A DNA stretch of 23,403 nt from a virus (IMGVR_UViG_3300012344_000009:1-23403), one strand, 5' to 3'; shown: positions 2,947 to 14,617, counted from the first letter of the stretch. Notes: generated by a model from the sequence alone, not told the origin. Numbers and translations: made by a program.

Positions 2947-3180
2947 ATGGATTTTCAACCGATATTAGAGGCAGTTTTTTAGCAAGGTATTTGGTGCGCG
3001 TTGTTCGTGTGGCTTTTTTATGATAGCCGAAAACGGAGCGAAGAACGCGAAGAAAAGTTATATACAATTATCACAGAACAAAAAAGTATTTTAACGCAAA
3101 TTTCCAACTCGCTTATCTTAATGGACGAACGAATTGGGAAATTAGAAAATACGCTTTTAGGAGGAAAAGGTAATGATTGA
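2947..3180 (+). CDS. BhlA/UviB-family holin-like protein, 77 aa
   Basis: Translation: MDFQPILEAVF(TAG)QGIWCALFVWLFYDSRKRSEEREEKLYTIITEQKSILTQISN... It has an N-terminal TM helix followed by a charged coiled coil, the pattern I recall for BhlA (QGPFAVLFCWLLFY..SKERESKLY). One TAG at 2980-2982. Stop at TGA 3178-3180. Confidence 0.75.
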
Positions 3181-3370
3181 TTGGAAAAGAGTTTTACGCA
3201 CATTAGTTCAATCCGCTGCGGGCGCGGGTATCGCCCTTATCACGGCGGTTTCGTAGGATTGGAGCAAACAGAGCCTTATTTCTGCGGGAATTACATTTGC
3301 TTCTACCGTTGTTATTGCCGTTCTTATGAACATCAAGGGACAGGTTGAGGACGATGAAACAACTAACTGA
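3173..3370 (+). CDS. Holin (two TM segments, phage holin 4-like), 65 aa
   Basis: ATG 3173 follows GGAGGAAAAGG and overlaps the stop of the previous gene. Translation: MIDWKRVLRTLVQSAAGAGIALITAVS(TAG)DWSKQSLISAGITFASTVVIAVLMNIKGQVEDDETTN. TAG at 3254-3256. Stop at TGA 3368-3370. Confidence 0.75.
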
Positions 3371-3980
3371 ATGGTTTAAGGCGCAAGTAGGTATCCAAGA
3401 GAAGGAAGAAAATAATGTTATCTATAATACTATCTACTATGGGCGCGAAGTGAGCGGAGATAATTTCCCGTGGTGTTGCGCGTTTATATGGGTAGGATTT
3501 AATGAGAACAATATGAGTAGCCTTTTTTGCGGAGGCACTAAAACCGCCTATTGCCCGTTCGTAGTTCATTGGGCGCGCACGCATAACCAATGGATAACGA
3601 GCGGATACCGCGAAGGGGATTTAATTCTTTTTGATTGGGATAGCGACGGCGTAGCGGATCACATTGGTTATTGTATTGGCGTAAACGGCAATACGGTTAT
3701 CGCGATTGAGGGAAACGCCGGTGATAAGGTTAGTTAGTGCTACCGCGTAGATAATATTATGGGCGCGTATCGTCCCGCATACCCAACCGAACAACCGCCT
3801 ATAACTCTTCCTGTCCTTGAAGATGAATACATCGTTAAGGCTGGTGATAGCCTATGGAGTATTGCCGAGAGGTATTTGGGAAGCGGGTTAAAGTGGCAAG
3901 AAATTTATAATTTTAACAACCTAAATAGCACAACAATTTTGATTGGATAGAAACTAAAATTACCGAAAAGAGAGGGGTAA
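3354..3980 (+). CDS. Endolysin: N-terminal CHAP-type peptidase plus C-terminal LysM, 208 aa
   Basis: The catalytic Cys context is FPWCCAFIW and the His context is DHIGY, followed by IAIEGN. The C-terminal LysM reads YIVKAGDSLWSIAERYLGSGLKWQEIYNFNNLNSTTILIG(TAG)KLKLP. TAGs at 3735-3737 and 3948-3950 join ORFs 3345-3737 and 3759-3950. Stop at TAA 3978-3980. The start could alternatively be TTG 3345. Confidence 0.85.
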
Positions 3981-3994: not shown

Positions 3995-4102
3995 CATTAA
4001 TAAAATCAGCGTGCCACATTGAAAATAATCAGGGGGACAGAATTTGAAAAGTGCTGATTTTTCAATGGTTTGTGGATTTTTTGAAAAGCCGTTTTAGAAA
4101 AC

Positions 4103-4152
4103 GCTGATTCGTAATCAGCAGGTCGTGTGTTCGAGTCACATTGCCAGCTCCA
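4103..4152 (+). other. 3' portion of a tRNA-Thr(CGU) gene (positions ~27-76 incl. CCA); putative attP core
   Basis: Layout: GCTGA-TTCGTAA-TCAGC (anticodon arm, anticodon CGT), AGGTC (variable), GTGTG-TTCGAGT-CACAT (T arm), TGCCAGC (acceptor 3' strand), T, CCA. No complementary 5' acceptor strand (GCTGGCA) or D arm lies upstream, so this is a fragment and not a gene. It lies 118 nt upstream of the integrase. Confidence 0.75.
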
Positions 4153-4153
4153 A

Positions 4154-4185
4154 ACCCTGTATCCGTTGAGGATACAGGGTTTTTT
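4154..4185 (+). terminator. Rho-independent terminator immediately after the tRNA fragment
   Basis: An 11-bp stem ACCCTGTATCC / GGATACAGGGT with loop GTTGA, followed by TTTTT. Confidence 0.8.
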
Positions 4186-4193
4186 CTATTTTC

Positions 4194-4222
4194 TTGACAA
4201 ATTTGTCCCTCTGATTTATACT
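4194..4222 (+). promoter_or_regulatory. Sigma-A/sigma-70 type promoter for the integrase (class 'TTGACAAAT')
   Basis: TTGACA (4194-4199), a 17-nt spacer, then TATACT (4217-4222). It lies about 48 nt upstream of the int ATG, which has an AAGGAGGA RBS. Confidence 0.7.
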
Positions 4223-4269
4223 GCGAATTAAAAAGATAAGTGGGACACTTTTAAGGAGGATTTAGGGCT

Positions 4270-5277
4270 ATGCGTATCAAAATGGCGGCTGATGAAGATA
4301 GGGAATTGACAGATGTTTTAAAAGAATTTCTTACTCTTAAAGCAAGCAACAACTGCGCGCGGAAAACAATTCACAATTATGAGCAAAGTATTTTGAAACT
4401 TCAAAAGGATGAAGCCATAGAAAAAATTAGCGAACTCACCGACGAAACAATAATTGATTGGAAAAAAAGAATGTTGGATAGTTCTCTTTCCGCTTCTTCC
4501 ATTAATCATTATTTGCGAGATGTGCGCGCGTTCGTCAATTACTGTATCAGCAAGCACTACATTCCATTTTTCCAATTTGAACTTATCAAGCAACAGGAAG
4601 AAGGTATTAAGTTCCTACCAAACACCGACATAGAAAAACTTTTAGAGAAACCGCTTAAAACAGAAACCTTCCCTACTTGGCGCTCTTGGATGATTGTTAA
4701 TTGGGTTTACGCAACCGGCAACCGCGAAAGCACTATCTGTGAAGTAAGATTAAGTGATGTAGATTTTAGCGGAAGCCGTATTTATTTGCGCCACACCAAA
4801 AGCCGTAAACTACAAACTATACCCCTCTCGCGCACGCTTGCTTCCTATCTCAAAGAGTATATACGCTACTTCCGCAAAAACTGCCCGCCTACCGCCTATC
4901 TCTTCCCCTCTATTGGAGATACCAAACTAACTACTGACGGGCTACGGAGAGGCTACGCGCGCTATTGTAAAAGCAGAGGCGTTTCTAATACTTCCCTACA
5001 CGGAATACGGCACACCTTCGCGCAAGAGTGGATTAACAACAACGGCAACCTCTACCAATTACAGATTATGTTAGGACACTCTACCCCAACTATGACGCAA
5101 AAGTATTTGCGTGCGGTAGGAACTCGCTTTGATAGTTTTGAGGATTTTAACCCGCTTGATAAAGCGCGCACCGCCAGCAGGACGAAAGAAGTAGTATTAA
5201 GTGTAAGGGAGAGTATAACCAACGATAAAAACGATAATCCGCAAATCGTAGTAATTCCCCCCGAAAACGGAGAATAA
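4270..5277 (+). CDS. int: Tyrosine recombinase / phage integrase, 335 aa, no TAG
   Basis: It has an N-terminal SAM-like domain and a catalytic region with ATGNRESTICEVRLSDV, HGIRHTFAQEW and LGHSTPTMTQKYL (R...HxxR...Y pattern). The ORF is intact under the standard code. Stop at TAA 5275-5277. Confidence 0.95.
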   Translation: MRIKMAADEDRELTDVLKEFLTLKASNNCARKTIHNYEQSILKLQKDEAIEKISELTDETIIDWKKRMLDSSLSASSINHYLRDVRAFVNYCISKHYIPFFQFELIKQQEEGIKFLPNTDIEKLLEKPLKTETFPTWRSWMIVNWVYATGNRESTICEVRLSDVDFSGSRIYLRHTKSRKLQTIPLSRTLASYLKEYIRYFRKNCPPTAYLFPSIGDTKLTTDGLRRGYARYCKSRGVSNTSLHGIRHTFAQEWINNNGNLYQLQIMLGHSTPTMTQKYLRAVGTRFDSFEDFNPLDKARTASRTKEVVLSVRESITNDKNDNPQIVVIPPENGE

Positions 5278-5296
5278 ACGATTTACCCCACCAAAA

Positions 5297-5340
5297 GGAA
5301 GAGAGAAGAGTAAAAAAAAATTTGCTTTTCTCTCTTTTTT
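5297..5340 (+). terminator. Probable terminator after int
   Basis: A long imperfect hairpin: AAGAGAGA (5299-5306) pairs with TCTCTCTT (5329-5336), with further A:T/G:T pairs inside. It ends in a T-run. Confidence 0.5.
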
Positions 5341-5399
5341 GTATTTATGGTATTGCTTTTTGCGCTTGCTTGTGTTATACTATTATATTTTATATCCCA

Positions 5400-5428
5400 T
5401 TGACAAATGCGCTTTAATGTGCTATAAT
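5400..5428 (+). promoter_or_regulatory. Consensus sigma-A promoter with extended -10 (class 'TTGACAAAT')
   Basis: TTGACA (5400-5405), a 17-nt spacer, then TGcTATAAT (-10 at 5423-5428). An AT-rich upstream tract precedes it. It drives 5514-6560. Confidence 0.8.
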
Positions 5429-5513
5429 GTTAACGTAATGAGGAAGGGGAAACCTCCTCCATTCAACAAAATATGTTTAAAAATATGATTACATAAAAGG
5501 AGTAAAAAACATT

Positions 5514-5810
5514 ATGAAGAATCTTAAAGTGAAGTTTGGCGCTAACCCGTTTGGTGATACGAAGGAGGAACTGCTGAAAAATGCGGAGCGTCGTTTGGCT
5601 ACTAATTATGATGATAACGGTAGCGGTTTTAAAGTTTATCAATACATTATGGAACACGGGGACGGCTGCGTTCTGGAATACGAAGAAAATCCCTATGAGC
5701 AGAACCCCGAAGATGCTGAAATGTATTTTGGTTTAATTGCCCTTGAACATATGGGCTATATCAAGCACAAAGAAGCAAATATTATTGAGTTTCGCCCGTG
5801 CGGACGCTAA
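5514..5810 (+). CDS. Hypothetical protein, 98 aa, TAG-free
   Basis: ATG follows AAAGGAG. It is intact under the standard code. The C-terminus LIALEHMGYIKHKEANIIEFRP looks like a winged-helix wing. I recognise no family. Confidence 0.7.
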   Translation: MKNLKVKFGANPFGDTKEELLKNAERRLATNYDDNGSGFKVYQYIMEHGDGCVLEYEENPYEQNPEDAEMYFGLIALEHMGYIKHKEANIIEFRPCGR

Positions 5811-5833
5811 TTTAAAGAAAGGGATTTTAATTT

Positions 5834-6190
5834 ATGTCTAAAAAGATAATGAATAAGAAATTTGATGTATTTTATTGCGATGACAAGCGCGATAGAAGTA
5901 TTTACTGTCAAGCGTGGGAAAACCTTTATCGTAAAGGTTGGGAAGGGAACGCTGCCGTTATCTACGATGACATTTTTAAGAAAAATAAAGATAAACTTTT
6001 CCGCCCTCCGTTTAGATTTGCCTATGCTAATTATCGCTCAACTATGAGTGATGAAGAAATTACCCACGCTATCGAAGTGCTTATTAAGTGCGGTTATTTT
6101 AAGAAGTTTGACAATAAAACAGTTTATTTTTATCCCAAAGGAAACGAAGAACTTATTAATGCTTTTCTTAACGAAGAAGAAAGCGCCTAA
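5834..6190 (+). CDS. Hypothetical protein, 118 aa, TAG-free
   Basis: It is intact under the standard code. The C-terminal part reads IEVLIKCGYFKKFDNKTVYFYPKG, the same helix-G-[YF]-hairpin pattern as its neighbours. Confidence 0.7.
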   Translation: MSKKIMNKKFDVFYCDDKRDRSIYCQAWENLYRKGWEGNAAVIYDDIFKKNKDKLFRPPFRFAYANYRSTMSDEEITHAIEVLIKCGYFKKFDNKTVYFYPKGNEELINAFLNEEESA

Positions 6191-6209
6191 TTATAGAAAG
6201 GTATCAAAT

Positions 6210-6560
6210 ATGGAAAATTACGAAAAGATTTTTATTAAAGAAAACATTCACCCCGGTATGAGCGCAAAGGCACATAGAGAACTTTATGGCAGAAAGTGCT
6301 TCCTGCTTGATTTAGAGGACGAATATATATGGGATGAATACCAGAACGCAGGTAAAATCTATCAAGCAATTATTGATATGCTTCCCAATGATACGATGCT
6401 CACCCGTGAAAAAGTTAATGAAGAACTTGAAGGGCGAGAGTGGGGAACTCTTGACGAAGATGATTATGAGGTAGGGATTAATCAACTCATTGATTGGGGT
6501 TTCCTTATTGAAGAGGAAGAAACGGTTAATGATATTCCTGTAATGTGGTTTAATTGGTAA
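6210..6560 (+). CDS. Hypothetical acidic protein, 116 aa, TAG-free
   Basis: The internal ATG 6210 (MENYEKIF...) of track ORF 6048-6560 is taken as the start, because the upstream part overlaps 5834-6190 in another frame. The C-terminus reads INQLIDWGFLIEEEETVNDIPVMWFNW. Stop at TAA 6558-6560. Confidence 0.65.
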   Translation: MENYEKIFIKENIHPGMSAKAHRELYGRKCFLLDLEDEYIWDEYQNAGKIYQAIIDMLPNDTMLTREKVNEELEGREWGTLDEDDYEVGINQLIDWGFLIEEEETVNDIPVMWFNW

Positions 6561-6565
6561 TGGCG

Positions 6566-6691
6566 GACGCTGACGCGCCCGCGCCAATAGTAGGAATAAT
6601 TAAAGGGTATAATGCCCGAGACAGGTAGAAGCGCAAACGCGCTTCTTTTTTTATGCGATCCGGCGCGCCCTCTTTTCTTCCCTACTCTTGG
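6566..6691 (+). repeat. Foldback repeat element A (purine arm 6584-6607, pyrimidine arm 6668-6691) enclosing the operon terminator
   Basis: CCAATAGTAGGAATAATTAAAGGG is an imperfect reverse complement of CCCTCTTTTCTTCCCTACTCTTGG. The leader GACGCTGACGCGCCCGCGCC matches GAGCGCTAACGCGCCCCCGCC of element B at 8156. Confidence 0.6.
6627..6652 (+). terminator. Rho-independent terminator of the 5514-6560 operon
   Basis: An 8-bp stem AGAAGCGC / GCGCTTCT with loop AAAC, followed by TTTTTT. Confidence 0.85.
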
Positions 6692-6800
6692 ACAATTCCC
6701 ATTAATCGGCGTAAGCCTTTTTTCATATATCTATGGACAAAAGTGATTAAATAAATATTCACTAATTTTAGTATAATACGAGAGGAATATTCAATACCTC

Positions 6801-6829
6801 TTGACATTTATTCATTTTTGTGATATAAT
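6801..6829 (+). promoter_or_regulatory. Consensus sigma-A promoter with extended -10 (class 'TTGACATTTA...TGTGATATAATATA'), presumptive early promoter
   Basis: TTGACA (6801-6806), a 17-nt spacer, then TGaTATAAT (-10 at 6824-6829). It is near-identical to the promoter at 9242-9270. The palindrome GAATATTC (6785-6792) lies just upstream. Confidence 0.8.
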
Positions 6830-6835
6830 ATACAT

Positions 6836-6965
6836 AGGTGAGTAATCATAAGGGCAAAACTGATTAATATATCTGCCCTGATTTTTAATTGTATATGAAA
6901 GCATAATGTTTTTCTCCTTTTTCCTTTTAGAGGGGTTTGAGTAGTAGCGAACCCCTCTTCTTTTT
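6836..6965 (+). ncRNA. Candidate ~130-nt leader RNA / sRNA between the early promoter and an intrinsic terminator
   Basis: The predicted start is ~6836. Hairpin AGGGCA (6851-6856) / TGCCCT (6874-6879) is followed by GATTTTT. A terminator with 9-bp stem AGAGGGGTT (6929-6937) / AACCCCTCT (6950-6958) is followed by TCTTTTT. There is no plausible + strand ORF. The next gene starts at 7014. Confidence 0.3.
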
Positions 6966-7013
6966 AGGGAAGCAAGAGAGACATTGTATAACGAATGAAG
7001 GAGAATAAAATAA

Positions 7014-7151
7014 ATGTTAGTTAAAACGGAAACCATAACCATTAAAGTAAGTGAAGCCGAGAAGAAGGCTATTCAACAGATGGCGCAAGAGCAAGATATT
7101 AGCGTTAGTAAACTCTTGTATCGCTTTATAAAAAAGAACGGATTAATTTAA
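7014..7151 (+). CDS. Ribbon-helix-helix (CopG/Arc-like) DNA-binding protein, 45 aa, TAG-free
   Basis: ATG follows GAAGGAGAA. Translation: MLVKTETITIKVSEAEKKAIQQMAQEQDISVSKLLYRFIKKNGLI, a beta strand followed by two helices. It is below the 60-aa cutoff of the ORF track. Confidence 0.55.
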   Translation: MLVKTETITIKVSEAEKKAIQQMAQEQDISVSKLLYRFIKKNGLI

Positions 7152-7166
7152 AGGAGAAACAAAACA

Positions 7167-7349
7167 ATGGAACAAAGAACGTATCTTTATACTATTTTCA
7201 GCCGGGATTTAGCATTTAAGTTAGCATAGAAAGGTTTTAAATGCTACGGAACGGGAACAAACAGCCGATATAACGACAAAGAGGTATATTTCTTTAAAAA
7301 TACACCAGAACTTCACTATGAAATATACCAATACAAAAATAATAAATAA
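7167..7349 (+). CDS. Small DUF5659-like protein, 60 aa
   Basis: ATG follows AAGGAGAA. Translation: MEQRTYLYTIFSRDLAFKLA(TAG)KGFKCYGTGTNSRYNDKEVYFFKNTPELHYEIYQYKNNK. TAG at 7227-7229. Stop at TAA 7347-7349. Confidence 0.55.
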
Positions 7350-7373: not shown

Positions 7374-8090
7374 ATGTCTTATCCAAACCAGTTATTTACA
7401 ATTTCACAAAGATAGAAGTGTGAAAAGGATTTTTTCCAACTTTCTAATAAAGCGTTCAAAGACGCTTATAAAAATTTATCTAAAAAAGCCCTTGGTATGT
7501 GGGTAATCTTAATAGGCAATAGCCCAGCTTTTACTAACGAATTAAGCCGTGCTGCGTTTAAGAAAGAGTTGAATATGGACGGGAAATCGTATGAGCGCGC
7601 TTGGAGAGAGTTGAAAGAGAAGGGTTATGCGGTTTTGAAAGAAGGCTCAAAGAATACTTATTTAATTCTGGAAGAGCCTATAAAAATTATCCCCCTCCAA
7701 ACGGAGGGAGATAATAACCCCGACAAAATTGAGGGAGATAATATCCCCCCCAAAATTGTCGATTATCCCCCCCAAAATTGTCCTTTATCTCCCTCAAAAT
7801 TGTCCTTTATCTCCCCCAAAATTGACGTAAGAAACAGAGAACATATAAACAGAGAAACAGAGAAAGAACGCTTTCTTCATTCCTCTGCTTCGCAGAGTAA
7901 TGAAGAAAGCTCTACCCCCAAACCCCCAAAGGGGGCTTCTCCAAGAGTAGAAGAAAAAGTAGGGGCGGATTTTATAGAAATCTCATTAGCAGAACTTCGG
8001 GCGATGGCTCAACAGGGGTTAAGCATTGATGTGATAAATAAAAAACGCGGATTGTTTAGAGGGAATGGAGTAATTTATAAAGCGGTATAA
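7374..8090 (+). CDS. Putative replication initiator / replisome organiser (winged-helix N-terminal domain), 238 aa
   Basis: ATG 7374 is in frame with track ORF 7497-8090 through TAG 7413-7415. The N-terminal region FFQLSNKAFKDAYKNLSKKALGMWVILIGN...SYERAWRELKEKGYAVL resembles phage Rep/DnaD-like organisers. The gene contains an iteron array (see 7717-7827). Confidence 0.55.
7717..7827 (+). repeat. Iteron array, candidate origin of replication inside the rep gene
   Basis: There are five direct repeats of C-run + AAAATTG(T/A)C: CCCCGACAAAATTGAG, CCCCCCCAAAATTGTCG, CCCCCCCAAAATTGTCCTTTATCT, CCCTCAAAATTGTCCTTTATCT and CCCCCAAAATTGAC. The palindrome CCCTCCAAACGGAGGG (7692-7707) precedes them. Confidence 0.65.
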
Positions 8091-8113: not shown

Positions 8114-8156
8114 CTAATAAGTAGGCAACAAAATGGTGAGTAGAAACAAGAGGGGA

Positions 8157-8285
8157 GCGCTAACGCGCCCCCGCCAAGAGTAGGAAGAAAGGAATGGTAA
8201 GCGCGGAGCGCGCCCTCCCTCTTTTCTCTTCCTCTTGGCGCGGAGCGCGGAGCGCGACGCTATATATTAGGAGGAATTAATAATG
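8157..8285 (+). repeat. Repeat element B: foldback (8174-8192 vs 8217-8238), GC heptad triplet and shared 5' cassette up to the ATG of 8283
   Basis: Interval 8217-8285 matches 14621-14690, with a 43-nt identical core CCCTCTTTTCTCTTCCTCTTGGCGCGGAGCGCGGAGCGCGACG followed by TATAT..AGGAGGA..TAATG. CCAAGAGTAGGAAGAAAGG is the inverted partner of the pyrimidine tract. The tandem heptads GCGCGGA GCGCGGA GCGCGAC lie at 8238-8258. Confidence 0.8.
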
Positions 8286-8711
8286 ACAGATAGTAAATAT
8301 GGCGAACAACTTTTTAAATCATTGATGGAATAGCGTGGGCATAAAGTTGAAGATTTAACCGCGCAAAAAGCATATTAGATATAGGATATTGATTTTAAAA
8401 TTACTTCATCTACTGGAAAAGTAGCAACCTTCGAAGTGAAGTATGATAGTAAGATAAATAAAACCGGAAACTTGTTTGTAGAATATTTTAGCGCGCACAA
8501 CTATGGCGGATTAGGCTGGTATGAATTTTGTAAGGCTGATTTTATAGCCTACGGAGACGCGCACACTAATACCTTCTATTGCTTCCTCTTGGAAGATTTA
8601 CGATAGTTAATTAATTCTCACAAGTTTAATACGGCAACAACCGATAACGGAAAAGTAGCGGGCTATTTAGTTCCGTTGCGTTTGATAGAAAATATGGAGG
8701 TAGGAGAATGA
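8283..8711 (+). CDS. PD-(D/E)XK-type nuclease-like protein, 142 aa
   Basis: ATG follows AGGAGGA. The motif is ...DIDFKITSSTGKVATFEVKYD...NLFVEYFS... (D...ExK). There are four in-frame TAGs (8331, 8376, 8382, 8604), which is why the ORF track shows nothing here. Stop at TGA 8709-8711. Confidence 0.5.
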
Positions 8712-8872: not shown

Positions 8873-9245
8873 TTTAACCGCGAAGGAACGCGCTTTTTGT
8901 GAGGCGTATGTATAGAATTATAATGCTTGTCAGGCTTATTTAAGCGCGTATGATTGTAAATTGGAAACCGCTAATTCCGCTGGTTGGAAATTGTTATCAC
9001 GTCCCGCCATTATCAATTATATCAAGGAATTACAGCAAGCATTAACGGAGAGATACGTTGACGCAGCCGCGATAATATTAAATGAATTGATGGAAGATAT
9101 AACTTATCGTGATGAACACGGGAAGCATAGTAGCACTTGGCTGAAAAGCGCCGATTTAGCGCAGAAACAATTAGGCATTCAAAAGTTAAAGGCAGACATT
9201 CAAGCAGAGCATACAGTTATCAATGTGAATATTGAGGAAACTTGA
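8853..9245 (+). CDS. terS: Terminase small subunit (Terminase_2-like), 130 aa
   Basis: Translation: MARRTSDLTAKERAFCEAYV(TAG)NYNACQAYLSAYDCKLETANSAGWKLLSRPAIINYI... This is the typical terS N-terminal HTH pattern (LT.ke..F...Y...gNa..Ay..AGy). TAG at 8913-8915 joins it to track ORF 8961-9245. Stop at TGA 9243-9245. Confidence 0.8.
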
Positions 9246-9270
9246 CATTTAGCATAAAATGTGATATAAT
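9242..9270 (+). promoter_or_regulatory. Consensus sigma-A promoter with extended -10 overlapping the terS stop, upstream of terL
   Basis: TTGACA (9242-9247), a 17-nt spacer, then TGaTATAAT (-10 at 9265-9270). The sequence TTGACATTTAGCATAAAATGTGATATAATATATAT is a close copy of the promoter at 6801. A GAATATT element at 9227-9233 occupies the same upstream position. Confidence 0.75.
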
Positions 9271-9314: not shown

Positions 9315-10567
9315 ATGCCAATGCCCGCCATAGATTTAAATATCAGTAAAAATATGTTCGTCCCCCTCTATTTTCCCTACCTCTTGGATTATAGTTATAG
9401 GGATAATGTTTACTACGGCGGCAGATAAGCGCGTCGGGCAAAACGAAGTTTATAATGTAGAAACTTCTTATTAAGGGGCTGAAAGAAAAACGAACTATCT
9501 TGTTAATGCGTAAACAAACAAATCAGTTGAGAGATACGCTTTTCAAGGAAATGGCGCAAGTTATAGACGAGTTTCATTTAACCCCGTATTTTGATATTAA
9601 TAGAACGGAATTACGTTTTACTTGTAAGATTAACGGGACGGAATTTAAGTGTTAGGGATTGGACGAGCCAGAAAAGATAAAGGGCTTTGTAGATATAGCG
9701 GATGTATTTATGGACGAGATTACCGCCTTTACCGCAGAAGATGTAGAGTTAATACAAGGCACATTGAGAAGCCCAAAATATAAATTACCGTTGTAGATGT
9801 ATTTTGCGTTTAACCCTATCAGTAAAGCCAACTTTGTATATAAGTATTTTGGTTTTGATACGGGTATCGTTCCGCCCAATACCTTTATACTGAAAAGCAC
9901 TTATTTAGATAATCCCTTCTTGGGCGCTAACGTGGCGGAGCGCTACGAAACCTTAAAGTAGCGTGATTACCGGCGCTGGTAGATAGAGGCGTTAGGCGAT
10001 TTTGTAAGCCTTGATAGATTGGTATTCAATAATTACAAGGTAGAAGAATTCGATTATACGAAGATACAAGGGAAATTGTTGTGCGGATTAGATTATGGCT
10101 TTGTAAATGATATTAGCGCCTTCGTTGCTTCCGTAGCAACCGCCGATAATAAGTTATATGTGTTCCGCGAATGGGGAGACACAAATAAAACAAACCCCGA
10201 ATTATCTACCATTATCTCTACTCTTGGGTTTAGTAAGAGTGTGATAATAGCGGATTGTGCGGAGCAGAAAAGTATAGAAGAGATGCGCCGATGTGGAATA
10301 TAGAAAATTAAGCCTTGCGCAAAAGGGCAAGATAGTATAATCCACGGCATACAAAAATTACAATAGTATGAAATAGTTGTTCATCCTTCTTGTTAGGGAA
10401 TAATTACGGAACTACAAAATTATTCGTGGTAGAAAGATAAAAGCGGTGAGTATATCAACAAGCCTATTGATGCGTTCAATCACTACATAGACGCGCTGCG
10501 TTATAGCCTACAATGTATTGATGCTAACCGTATAAGAACGATGGACAAAAGTATTTTTGGATTATGA
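9315..10567 (+). CDS. terL: Terminase large subunit (PBSX/XtmB-like), ~416 aa, 9 in-frame TAGs and a frame break inside Walker A
   Basis: The N-terminal 37 codons (frame 0) MPMPAIDLNISKNMFVPLYFPYLLDYSYRDNVYYGGR stop at TAA 9426. The rest is in frame 2: (I)SASGKTKFIM.KLLIKGLKEKRTILLMRK...GLDEPEKIKG...VFMDEITAF...NHYIDALRYSL. TAGs at 9458, 9653, 9794, 9959, 9980, 10301, 10364, 10394 and 10430. Stop at TGA 10565-10567. Confidence 0.85.
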
Positions 10568-12976: not shown

Positions 12977-14047
12977 ATGAATATCATTTCTTACGCTATT
13001 GGTAGAAATAGCGGGGGTAGTAGTGGCGGAGATACGCCAACGGCAGAAGAATTGACATTGACGGGTGATTGCGCATATGCGTTTTATCACGGAACTTTTG
13101 ATTGGTTGATTAATAAATATGGAAATTCAATTACTACAAACAATATTACGCAAGGCAATAATATGTTTAATTTTACAACTGTATTATCTATTCCTTTTAC
13201 TTTAAATTGCGCTGATAACCCATATGATAATAGCGCTTTTTTAAGAATGTTTTTAAACGCTCAAAAATTACAAGTTGCGCCGAACATAACCGGCTATTTG
13301 CGCGGGGTAGAAAGTATGTTTAGTGGTTGCCTTAATCTTCACGCTATCCCTGAATATAACATTAATTTTGATAGATAGCACGCTGACACAAGCGGGAGTG
13401 TAAACAATATATTTAAGGATTGCTATAAACTACGTTCAATTCCCACTAATTTTTTAAAGCAATTATATAACGCGAACAATTATGGGTATCAAACTTCTTA
13501 TTATAGTTTCTTTAATGGTTGTTATTATTTAGATGAAATTGTTGGAATACCGGTTTCATCCGCTACCCTTACTTTAAACTGTTTCAGCCATACGTTTTTT
13601 AATTGTAAACGTGTAAAAAATATTATTTTTGATACAGATAACGGAAACGTAAAAACTGCTAATTGGAAAGCGCAAACTATTGATTTAACAGAAAATGGCG
13701 GAGTTGGGCATAGCGCCGGTTATGGGCTTGACACAATAGGCGATGATGATGGGTATAGATTAACCAACGCTACACAAATAACATCATTAAATTACGATAC
13801 TTTAAAAAATAACCCTGATAGTTGGGCAACCGTAAAAGAATATAGCCGTTATAATCACGATAGCGCCGTAGAAACCATTAATAGCCTTCCCGATACGAGC
13901 GCCTATATAGAGGCGAACGGCGGAACTAATACAATTAAGTTCCAAGGCGAGAGCGGAAAGTTAACCGATGGAGGCGCTATTAATACTCTCACCGAAGAAG
14001 AGATAGCCGTAGCAACCGCGAAGGGCTGGACAGTTTCGTTTGTTTAA
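12977..14047 (+). CDS. BspA-type leucine-rich-repeat-like accessory/structural protein, 356 aa
   Basis: ORF 12977-13378 continues through TAG 13376 to TAA 14045-14047. Recurrent MF.gC..L..IP-type repeats are present (MFSGCLNLHAIPE, IFKDCYKLRSIPT, FFNGCYYLDEIVGIP, FFNCKRVKNIIF). The C-terminus reads NTIKFQGESGKLTDGGAINTLTEEEIAVATAKGWTVSFV. Confidence 0.55.
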
Positions 14048-14059
14048 TGGAGGTAAAAA

Positions 14060-14284
14060 ATGAAAGCAAAAAGTTTTAGTTTAGTTAGATACGACGCTGA
14101 TGATGGAATGGTTTTCGATTGGGCAGAACCCCGCTACGTTGATGTTCCTAATGATAAGGATAACCCGGAAGCGGGAACACACCAAGAACAAGAACATCTT
14201 TACGCGAAAACCGTTTTTATTGGCGATAATGATAGCATTGATAATTATATCGAAGTTGCTGAACCCGATGGGCAAAGTAATTAA
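14060..14284 (+). CDS. Hypothetical acidic protein, 74 aa, TAG-free
   Basis: ATG lies 6 nt after GGAGG. It is intact in the ORF track. Confidence 0.6.
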   Translation: MKAKSFSLVRYDADDGMVFDWAEPRYVDVPNDKDNPEAGTHQEQEHLYAKTVFIGDNDSIDNYIEVAEPDGQSN

Positions 14285-14341
14285 ATCTAATAGCGCTATT
14301 TTTTAATATAAAATGAAATCAAGGTAATGGAGGTTATCAAT

Positions 14342-14617
14342 ATGGAAGAAATCTGGAAAGATTGCCCGCACTACCCCAACTATCTAATTTCCAATAGAGG
14401 TAGAGTATTTGATTTAAGCGCTCACCGCATTGTGAAGATATGGCAGAACAATGAAGGCTATCAGTTGGTTTAGTTGCGGAATTACACCAATAGGAACGAG
14501 AAGATACATAGATTAGTTGCGCTTGCGTTCATTCCAAACCCACAAGGCTATTGTAAAGTTGAACATAAGAACGGGATTAAGAACGATAACCGCGTAAGTA
14601 ATTTAGAGTGGCGCTAA
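14342..14617 (+). CDS. Free-standing HNH homing endonuclease (NUMOD4 + HNH_3-like), 91 aa
   Basis: ATG follows GGAGGT. Translation: [25 protein letters not shown]...GYQLV(TAG)[50 protein letters not shown] at 14471-14473. Stop at TAA 14615-14617. Confidence 0.85.

Follow-up and report, generated by a model that had tools for sequence, protein, structure and literature searches.

A TAG-free integration and early module in a TAG-recoded, Topaz-like temperate phage and its possible bearing on the lytic programme

Why should one run of genes be free of the codon TAG in a phage genome that uses TAG as a sense codon nearly everywhere else? The question is raised by the viral sequence IMGVR_UViG_3300012344_000009:1-23403 (23,403 nt; this whole stretch is called the window below), in which a tyrosine integrase gene (int), a three-gene operon behind it and a gene for a ribbon-helix-helix (RHH) protein form a TAG-free island. 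An initial annotation of this DNA had explained the island by a translational lock: TAG would be spared in the genes that a prophage must express in an unsuppressed cell, and lytic genes could be translated only once amber suppression is switched on. On balance, we favor a reading of this kind, in which the window is a temperate phage with genetic code 15, resembling the Topaz group, selection has purged TAG from the integration and early module, and TAG elsewhere gates the production of full-length lytic proteins.

The window is the complete circular genome of a temperate siphovirus, because its first and last 78 bases are identical, the source DNA being a circular assembly of ~23,325 bp, and because a 518-aa tail gene spans the circle junction. 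Independent samples yielded further contigs, 23,444 and 23,123 bp long, that carry the exact integrase in an unchanged gene order, and a megablast search with the whole window against 50,697 GenBank phages gave no match. Read in the standard code, the window is broken up except for roughly 4270-6560. With TAG as a sense codon, open reading frames (ORFs) of 100 aa or more cover 80% of it instead of 48%, and a tight chain of genes appears, almost all on the plus strand, in which every stop is TAA or TGA. The gene order runs from tail genes through a BhlA-type holin and a CHAP/LysM endolysin to the integrase, three small genes, the RHH gene, a DUF5659 gene and a DnaD-like replication protein, and then through TerS, TerL, an SPP1-type portal and MuF to scaffold, capsid, tail and tape measure genes. 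The lysis genes are of Gram-positive type, and relatives with 54-59% identical portals sit in metagenome-assembled genomes labelled Oscillospiraceae, Ruminococcaceae or Eubacteriales; the host of the window may likewise be a gut bacterium of the Oscillospiraceae.

The meaning of TAG can be read from alignments. In best-hit alignments with standard-code relatives, glutamine stands opposite 142 of 468 TAG positions (30%, 7.5 times background), and all other residues stay at or below 1.6 times background. In the family alignments, TAG and glutamine share columns among recoded genomes, and glutamine occupies the same columns in standard-code genomes; column 257 of MuF, for example, has 14 TAG and 6 Q in recoded genomes versus 13 Q in standard-code ones. 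Since glutamine stands opposite TAG and the two interchange column by column, these alignments show that the phage uses code 15, with TAG encoding glutamine.

We quantified the distribution of TAG in a curated gene set with curated starts, consisting of the 5 island genes (712 codons) and 28 other genes (6,436 codons). The counts on which the initial annotation was built hold: its estimate of about 51 TAGs in some 6,400 codons outside the block becomes 51 in 6,436, and the block has none. At least one TAG is present in 24 of the 28 genes outside the island, including every lysis gene (at 2980, 3254, 3735 and 3948), and TAG is back in the DUF5659 gene immediately after the island; the genes without any are the short late genes already pointed out at 14060, 16257, 16541 and 17564. 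For a block set beforehand, the Poisson estimate near 0.003 is reproduced, and other tests give similar values (hypergeometric P = 0.004; TAG shuffled among glutamine-type codons, P = 0.007; Fisher's test of TAG versus CAA/CAG, P = 0.01). It does not survive post hoc choice of the longest run, which brings it to ~0.2, given that a TAG-free run of the island's length arises somewhere in the genome in 20-23% of random placements (P = 0.20-0.23). The run in this single genome is suggestive only, and not decisive. Sampling fluctuation, aided by small glutamine-poor genes, thus has to be considered as an explanation: besides the scan-corrected probability, the integrase alone reaches only P = 0.086 in this genome, and the four remaining island genes hold only 10 glutamine codons altogether. 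Against sampling fluctuation, TAG-free genes are clustered along the genome (gene-order permutation P = 0.006), and the island recurs in diverged relatives.

Those relatives carry the main evidence. Searching IMG/VR, GTDB genomes and metagenomes with a portal alignment gave ~100 related loci, ~60 of them TAG-recoded and the remainder using the standard code. When the 45 protein families represented by three or more distinct members in recoded loci are ranked by TAG depletion, the integrase stands far ahead of all others (0 TAG versus 92 CAA/CAG codons, P = 1.6e-11). At the opposite extreme of TAG usage are three families enriched in TAG relative to glutamine codons, namely an HNH endonuclease (window 14327-14617; 18 TAG versus 14 CAA/CAG, P = 8e-5), TerL (window 9455-10567; 66 versus 134) and the g8283 family (window 8133-8711; 24 versus 43). 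Twelve distinct integrases from recoded relatives (at most 95% identical, and forming 8 lineages at 60% identity or less) together show 0 TAG versus 143 glutamine codons. With a clade-wide depletion of this strength or greater, chance is refuted for the integrase, and we regard it as an extremely improbable explanation of the island.

The comparison is sharpest in pairs of genomes matched for divergence, with identities of 75-86% between the integrases and 81-93% between the portals. The portals of these pairs have 34 columns with shared TAG, 51 TAG/glutamine interchanges and 145 glutamine/glutamine columns, so that 85 columns bear TAG; the integrases have no shared TAG and no interchange in the presence of 169 glutamine/glutamine columns. 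Because these integrases diverged within recoded genomes and nevertheless stayed TAG-free, the comparison argues solidly for selection that keeps TAG out of the integrase, rather than for chance or recent import, and on this point the initial annotation is borne out.

Recent import would mean that the segment from int to the RHH gene is a mosaic cassette newly acquired from standard-code phages or hosts and too young to have gained TAGs. The module is indeed the most variable part of the genome: in the closest relative, L009, the portal is 95% identical, the integrase is 66% identical and the three operon genes are missing. Moreover, those three genes are near-orphans, and the GC skew of int is negative, unlike that of nearly all other genes. 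However, in GC content, GC3 and choice of synonymous codons the block genes stay inside the span covered by the genome's other genes and show no sign of foreign origin, and they all stop with TAA and none with TAG. In the standard-code relatives sampled, even the nearest integrases do not exceed 44% identity. Integrases 75-86% identical to each other within recoded genomes are TAG-free in the very pairs whose portals turn TAG over. Taking both sides together, we consider a recent import very unlikely.

Does the island extend past the integrase? Diverged copies of island genes are present on four contigs (L053-L056), where homologues of g5834 (31-75% identical, in L054-L056), g6210 (70-84%) and the RHH protein (72-93%) have 0 TAG, as do a 140-aa replacement gene and an integrase fragment on the same contigs; in L053 and L056, TAG is back at the DUF5659 gene or the replication gene. 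Thus the relatives' copies of block genes, whose TAG content the initial annotation had proposed to check, carry no TAG in the homologues of int, g5834, g6210 or the RHH gene. The families give nominal support (g6210, five distinct sequences, 0 TAG versus 18 glutamine codons, P = 0.008; RHH, 0 versus 19, P = 0.006) that loses significance after correction for 45 families, glutamine being scarce in these proteins. In other relatives, 2-4 small TAG-free genes, themselves glutamine-poor, separate int from TAG-bearing replication genes; Pfam searches with the TAG-free neighbors of int in relatives found nothing, apart from another integrase and a host LPXTG protein in L011. A further locus, L004, had seemed to hold a variant of the block, but its DNA is 100% identical and only the gene calls differ. 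Altogether, these comparisons make it probable, although short of proof, that the TAG-free island reaches beyond int.

Outside the island, TAG is spread more evenly among genes than expected. Exactly one TAG occurs in 16 of the 28 genes versus 7.9-8.7 expected (P = 0.0006-0.003), and no TAG in 4 versus 7.5-8.2 expected (P = 0.02-0.05). The same trend is observed across 19 recoded genomes, which are related and hence non-independent: 70 genes have none versus 90 expected, and 131 have one versus 95. First TAGs also lie earlier in their genes than glutamine codons do, in the window (P ~0.04), where they tend toward the first half of the gene, and across the clade (P ~0.0002-0.002, with the same non-independence and with automated start calls that may bias this test). 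The DUF5659 gene has a single TAG in both the window and L056, at different codons. These patterns of evenness and position are what would be seen if selection favored a single early TAG in each late gene.

The same data bear on a reading in which the island is a passive footprint: UAG decoding would be permissive in lytic growth, TAG would drift as a tolerated neutral codon at lytic glutamine sites, and it would be purged where decoding is poor. Individual alignment columns of late genes switch freely between TAG and CAA/CAG, as expected of a near-neutral synonymous change, the TAG load is uneven among late genes (TerL 9, g8133 6, MCP 1; the counts per gene are overdispersed, with chi2/df 1.55), and no component of a switch was found. 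Drift of this kind does not predict the excess of single-TAG genes (16 versus ~8) and the shortage of TAG-free late genes seen both here and clade-wide, nor TAGs that lie earlier than glutamine codons, nor a DUF5659 gene that kept a single TAG while its position shifted to a different codon. We therefore judge tolerated drift unlikely, on the evidence of both sides.

Under the regulatory reading that we prefer, the segment 4096-7151 would be an integration and early-decision module, made up of attP, int, the three-gene operon with a promoter and a terminator of its own, and the RHH gene at the head of the early operon. CAA/CAG-to-TAG changes would be removed from this module by purifying selection, its proteins being needed in a host that, going by the literature, would still terminate at TAG, whether during infection, lysogeny or excision. 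Proteins for replication, packaging, the virion and lysis would be made in full length only when UAG is read as glutamine, so that the TAGs would form a regulatory lock and suppression would be conditional. Such a lock is a reasonable hypothesis, already published, and is neither proven nor refuted by these data.

Several of the results given above weigh against a lock of this kind: the frequency with which a run as long as the island arises by random placement, the four late genes without TAG, the loss of significance of the non-integrase families after correction, and the dependence among the genomes behind the evenness and position statistics. The three operon genes are absent from L009, and therefore they are not a conserved requirement of lysogeny. 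The initial annotation had counted this operon among what a prophage must express; the claim finds no support in genes that are near-orphan and of which only g6210 yields a weak winged-helix-like model. Most directly, no component of a switch was found, which leaves a conditional switch unsupported. In the complete genome, ARAGORN detected no tRNA and no Rfam family scored above threshold. Suppressor tRNAs, ribozymes and release factors were not found in the genome or in the ~100 related loci, where the only tRNAs are of host type (Thr, Leu, Tyr, Met and Val), mostly beside integrases. No candidate protein family emerged either, as among families both specific to recoded genomes and consistently TAG-free none was convincing. 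The idea that suppression is switched on thus gained no backing from these searches. ARAGORN calls with a CTA anticodon appeared only under relaxed thresholds of 70-80%, within coding regions and among hundreds of noise calls, and were rejected.

Judged from these sequences, the source of TAG decoding is not a phage tRNA. It is conceivable, if doubtful, that the lock is real and that its key is supplied from outside the tRNAs of the phage; the lytic programme of these ~22-kb recoded phages would then be translatable only while UAG decoding is so provided, lysis would be decided according to how the cell decodes UAG, and the single early TAG would be a selected signature. Candidates for such a key would be a host-encoded or stress-induced suppressor or a weakened release factor 1 (RF1), a co-resident larger recoded phage bringing a tRNA(CUA), or a small protein of the phage itself, as yet unrecognised, that puts RF1 out of action.

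The features of the module and its surroundings are collected in Table 1. The tRNA-Thr fragment next to int is probably the core of attP: a relaxed ARAGORN search finds a degenerate tRNA at 4068-4152, and in relatives a full tRNA-Thr(cgt) adjoins int. The order of tRNA fragment, hairpin terminator, int promoter and int is the standard attP-int layout. A match to Rfam BTnc005 at 4150-4258 was dismissed as due to chance (28 bits versus a gathering score of 175 bits). The promoters and terminators that the initial annotation had assigned separately to int and to the operon are all present, and an early promoter at 6801 is added here. In total, the window contains four near-consensus sigma-70 promoters, versus 0.32 expected and with 0 of 100 shuffles reaching four; they lie at 4194 (int), 5400 (operon), 6801 (RHH gene and early operon) and 9242 (before TerL), all intergenic and on the plus strand. 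The last of these (9242-9270, TTGACA-17-TATAAT with TG) is also perfect, occupies precisely the gap from the stop of TerS to the start of TerL, and closely resembles the early promoter at 6801; in L009 and L053, an HNH endonuclease gene fills the TerS-TerL gap where the window has this promoter.

Table 1. Features of the integration and early module and of neighboring genes in the window
Feature	Position	Strand	Basis
Lysis cassette: BhlA-type holin (2947-3180), small membrane protein (3173-3370), CHAP/LysM endolysin (3354-3980)	2947-3980	+	Pfam on identical contig
3' part of tRNA-Thr(CGT): anticodon arm, T arm, acceptor strand, CCA	4096-4152	+	Read from sequence
Terminator after tRNA fragment: perfect 13-bp hairpin and T run	4152-4182	+	Sequence
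int promoter, near-consensus sigma-70, TTGACA-17-TATACT, 11/12	4194-4222	+	
Tyrosine integrase, 335 aa, 0 TAG, 11 CAA/CAG, TAA stop	4270-5277	+	PF00589 E=6e-29, phrog_1
Terminator-like hairpin after int	5295-5340	+	Sequence
Promoter of three-gene operon, perfect sigma-70, 12/12, extended -10 (TG)	5400-5428	+	
Orphan gene, 98 aa, 0 TAG, 2 glutamine codons	5514-5810	+	No Pfam/PHROG family
Near-orphan g5834, 118 aa, 0 TAG, 1 glutamine codon	5834-6190	+	No Pfam/PHROG family
Near-orphan g6210, 116 aa, 0 TAG	6210-6560	+	No Pfam/PHROG family
Terminator of three-gene operon	6627-6646	+	Sequence
Promoter of early rightward operon, perfect sigma-70	6801-6829	+	
Terminator-like hairpin in 185-nt leader between promoter 6801 and RHH gene	6929-6958	+	Sequence
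RHH protein, 45 aa, 0 TAG, first gene of early operon	7014-7151	+	NikA-like/RHH_1 matches
DUF5659 gene, first with TAG again (7227)	7167-7349	+	
DnaD-like/replication initiation protein, TAG at 7413, kept in L056	7374-8090	+	

The genes of the operon are rare to an unusual degree. For gene 5514, the sole cluster among 1.84 billion representatives is its own, and searches of 5.8 billion proteins return 3 homologues of g5834 and 8 of g6210. An AlphaFold2 (AF2) model of g5834 was unusable (pLDDT 52). That of g6210 has a pLDDT of 78, and its C-terminal half forms a strand-helix-helix-hairpin; Foldseek returned nothing below E = 0.1 with this model, and the non-significant neighbors are mostly winged-helix DNA-binding domains, a weak hint that g6210 may end in a winged-helix-like domain and act as a regulator. 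A C-terminal paralogy of the three orphan proteins, seen by eye, was abandoned when BLASTP similarity proved not significant. Overlapping the g6210 stop is a GC-rich putative ORF of 64 codons (6560-6754), whose one TAG (6626) immediately precedes the terminator of the operon; L009 has a counterpart with 45% identity. In the leader of the early operon, the segment 6906-6919 is complementary to the ribosome-binding site of the RHH gene (6998-7011); together with the leader hairpin, this complementarity may provide attenuation or translational control of the early operon. A minus-strand ORF at 6812-7042 has no Pfam or PHROG match and was taken as non-coding.

Two observations concern other parts of the genome. 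First, TerL is broken near its N-terminus (9315-9460), at the Walker A motif: the frame 9315-9431 ends in '...YYGGR' and a TAA stop, and 'SASGKTKF...' goes on in the -1/+2 frame. Relative to L053, whose 414-aa TerL is intact, the window has a 5-nt insertion; skipping two bases would bring back GxxxxGKT. The break is identical in the independent assemblies L001 and L002, the same stop and frame change recur in the distinct relative L009, and the gene is intact in L017, L013 and L011. From its sequence, the break could be a programmed frameshift or hop, or the gene could be defective. Second, a 356-aa head-module protein and an adjacent 74-aa gene (12977-14284) have homologues in 8-9 recoded relatives and in no sampled standard-code relative, an absence that may reflect only the greater distance of the latter.

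If the lock is true, the genetic code itself divides the two arms of the life cycle of a temperate phage, and this genome, only 23 kb long, with four consensus promoters and without decoding machinery of its own, would be among the simplest systems for testing it. What the present analysis adds is an independent confirmation at matched divergence of integrase and portal, evidence for a TAG-free island past the integrase, the pattern of one early TAG per late gene, and the clade-wide absence of a suppressor tRNA, by which the question of how TAG is decoded becomes more pointed. The TAG-free integrase and the idea of a switch were already published for this phage group, and in that respect the present finding is a correct rediscovery.

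The Topaz clade consists of phages of Firmicutes that recode TAG and have genomes of 22 ± 3 kb, and its 23,706-bp Topaz prophage lies in an Oscillospiraceae contig, bounded by an integrase and a tRNA-Thr, with recoded structural and lysis genes (Borges et al., bioRxiv 10.1101/2021.08.26.457843). The same study reported that integrases avoid in-frame TAG clade-wide (p = 1.2e-16) and that suppressor tRNAs occur in only ~40% of TAG-recoded phages, and it explicitly put forward recoding as a means to regulate the lytic-lysogenic switch (bioRxiv 10.1101/2021.08.26.457843). The trigger was still "not fully understood" according to a 2024 paper describing theta-ribozyme/tRNA-Sup cassettes (Kienbeck et al. 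2024, PMC10879173). The window fits the Topaz group by its described traits (size, code, tRNA-Thr and integrase), which is a likeness of features and not a placement in a terminase tree. It shares with Topaz its size (23.3 kb here), TAG as glutamine, the unidirectional layout, the pairing of integrase and tRNA-Thr, the TAG-free integrase and the recoded structural and lysis genes; moreover, its exact integrase is found in run SRR1747039, in the accession series (SRR17470xx) of the Topaz, Garnet and Sapphire contigs. The one difference is that only the integrase was reported TAG-free there, whereas here the three-gene orphan operon and the RHH gene are TAG-free too; otherwise nothing essential separates the two. 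The work of Borges et al. reportedly appeared later in Nat Microbiol, in 2022.

Other recoded phages show parts of the same arrangement. Garnet, represented by Prevotella prophages, is also ~24 kb and recoded, with a TAG-free integrase beside a host tRNA (Met) and a proposed switch, but it has a Bacteroidetes host and belongs to another phage lineage. In crAss-like and Lak phages, early genes are compatible with the standard code and structural and lysis genes contain TAG, and recoding was proposed to time late expression; these phages, however, are large and mostly virulent and carry their own tRNA(CUA) and sometimes RF2, aminoacyl-tRNA synthetases or ribozymes, of which this temperate 23-kb phage has none. 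The amber (sus) mutants of lambda, T4 and P22 offer the classical parallel, as an in-frame UAG makes them conditionally lethal and lytic growth requires a suppressing cell. Those are single mutations, engineered or selected, whereas here ~50 natural TAGs are distributed over nearly all lytic genes and are maintained across a clade.

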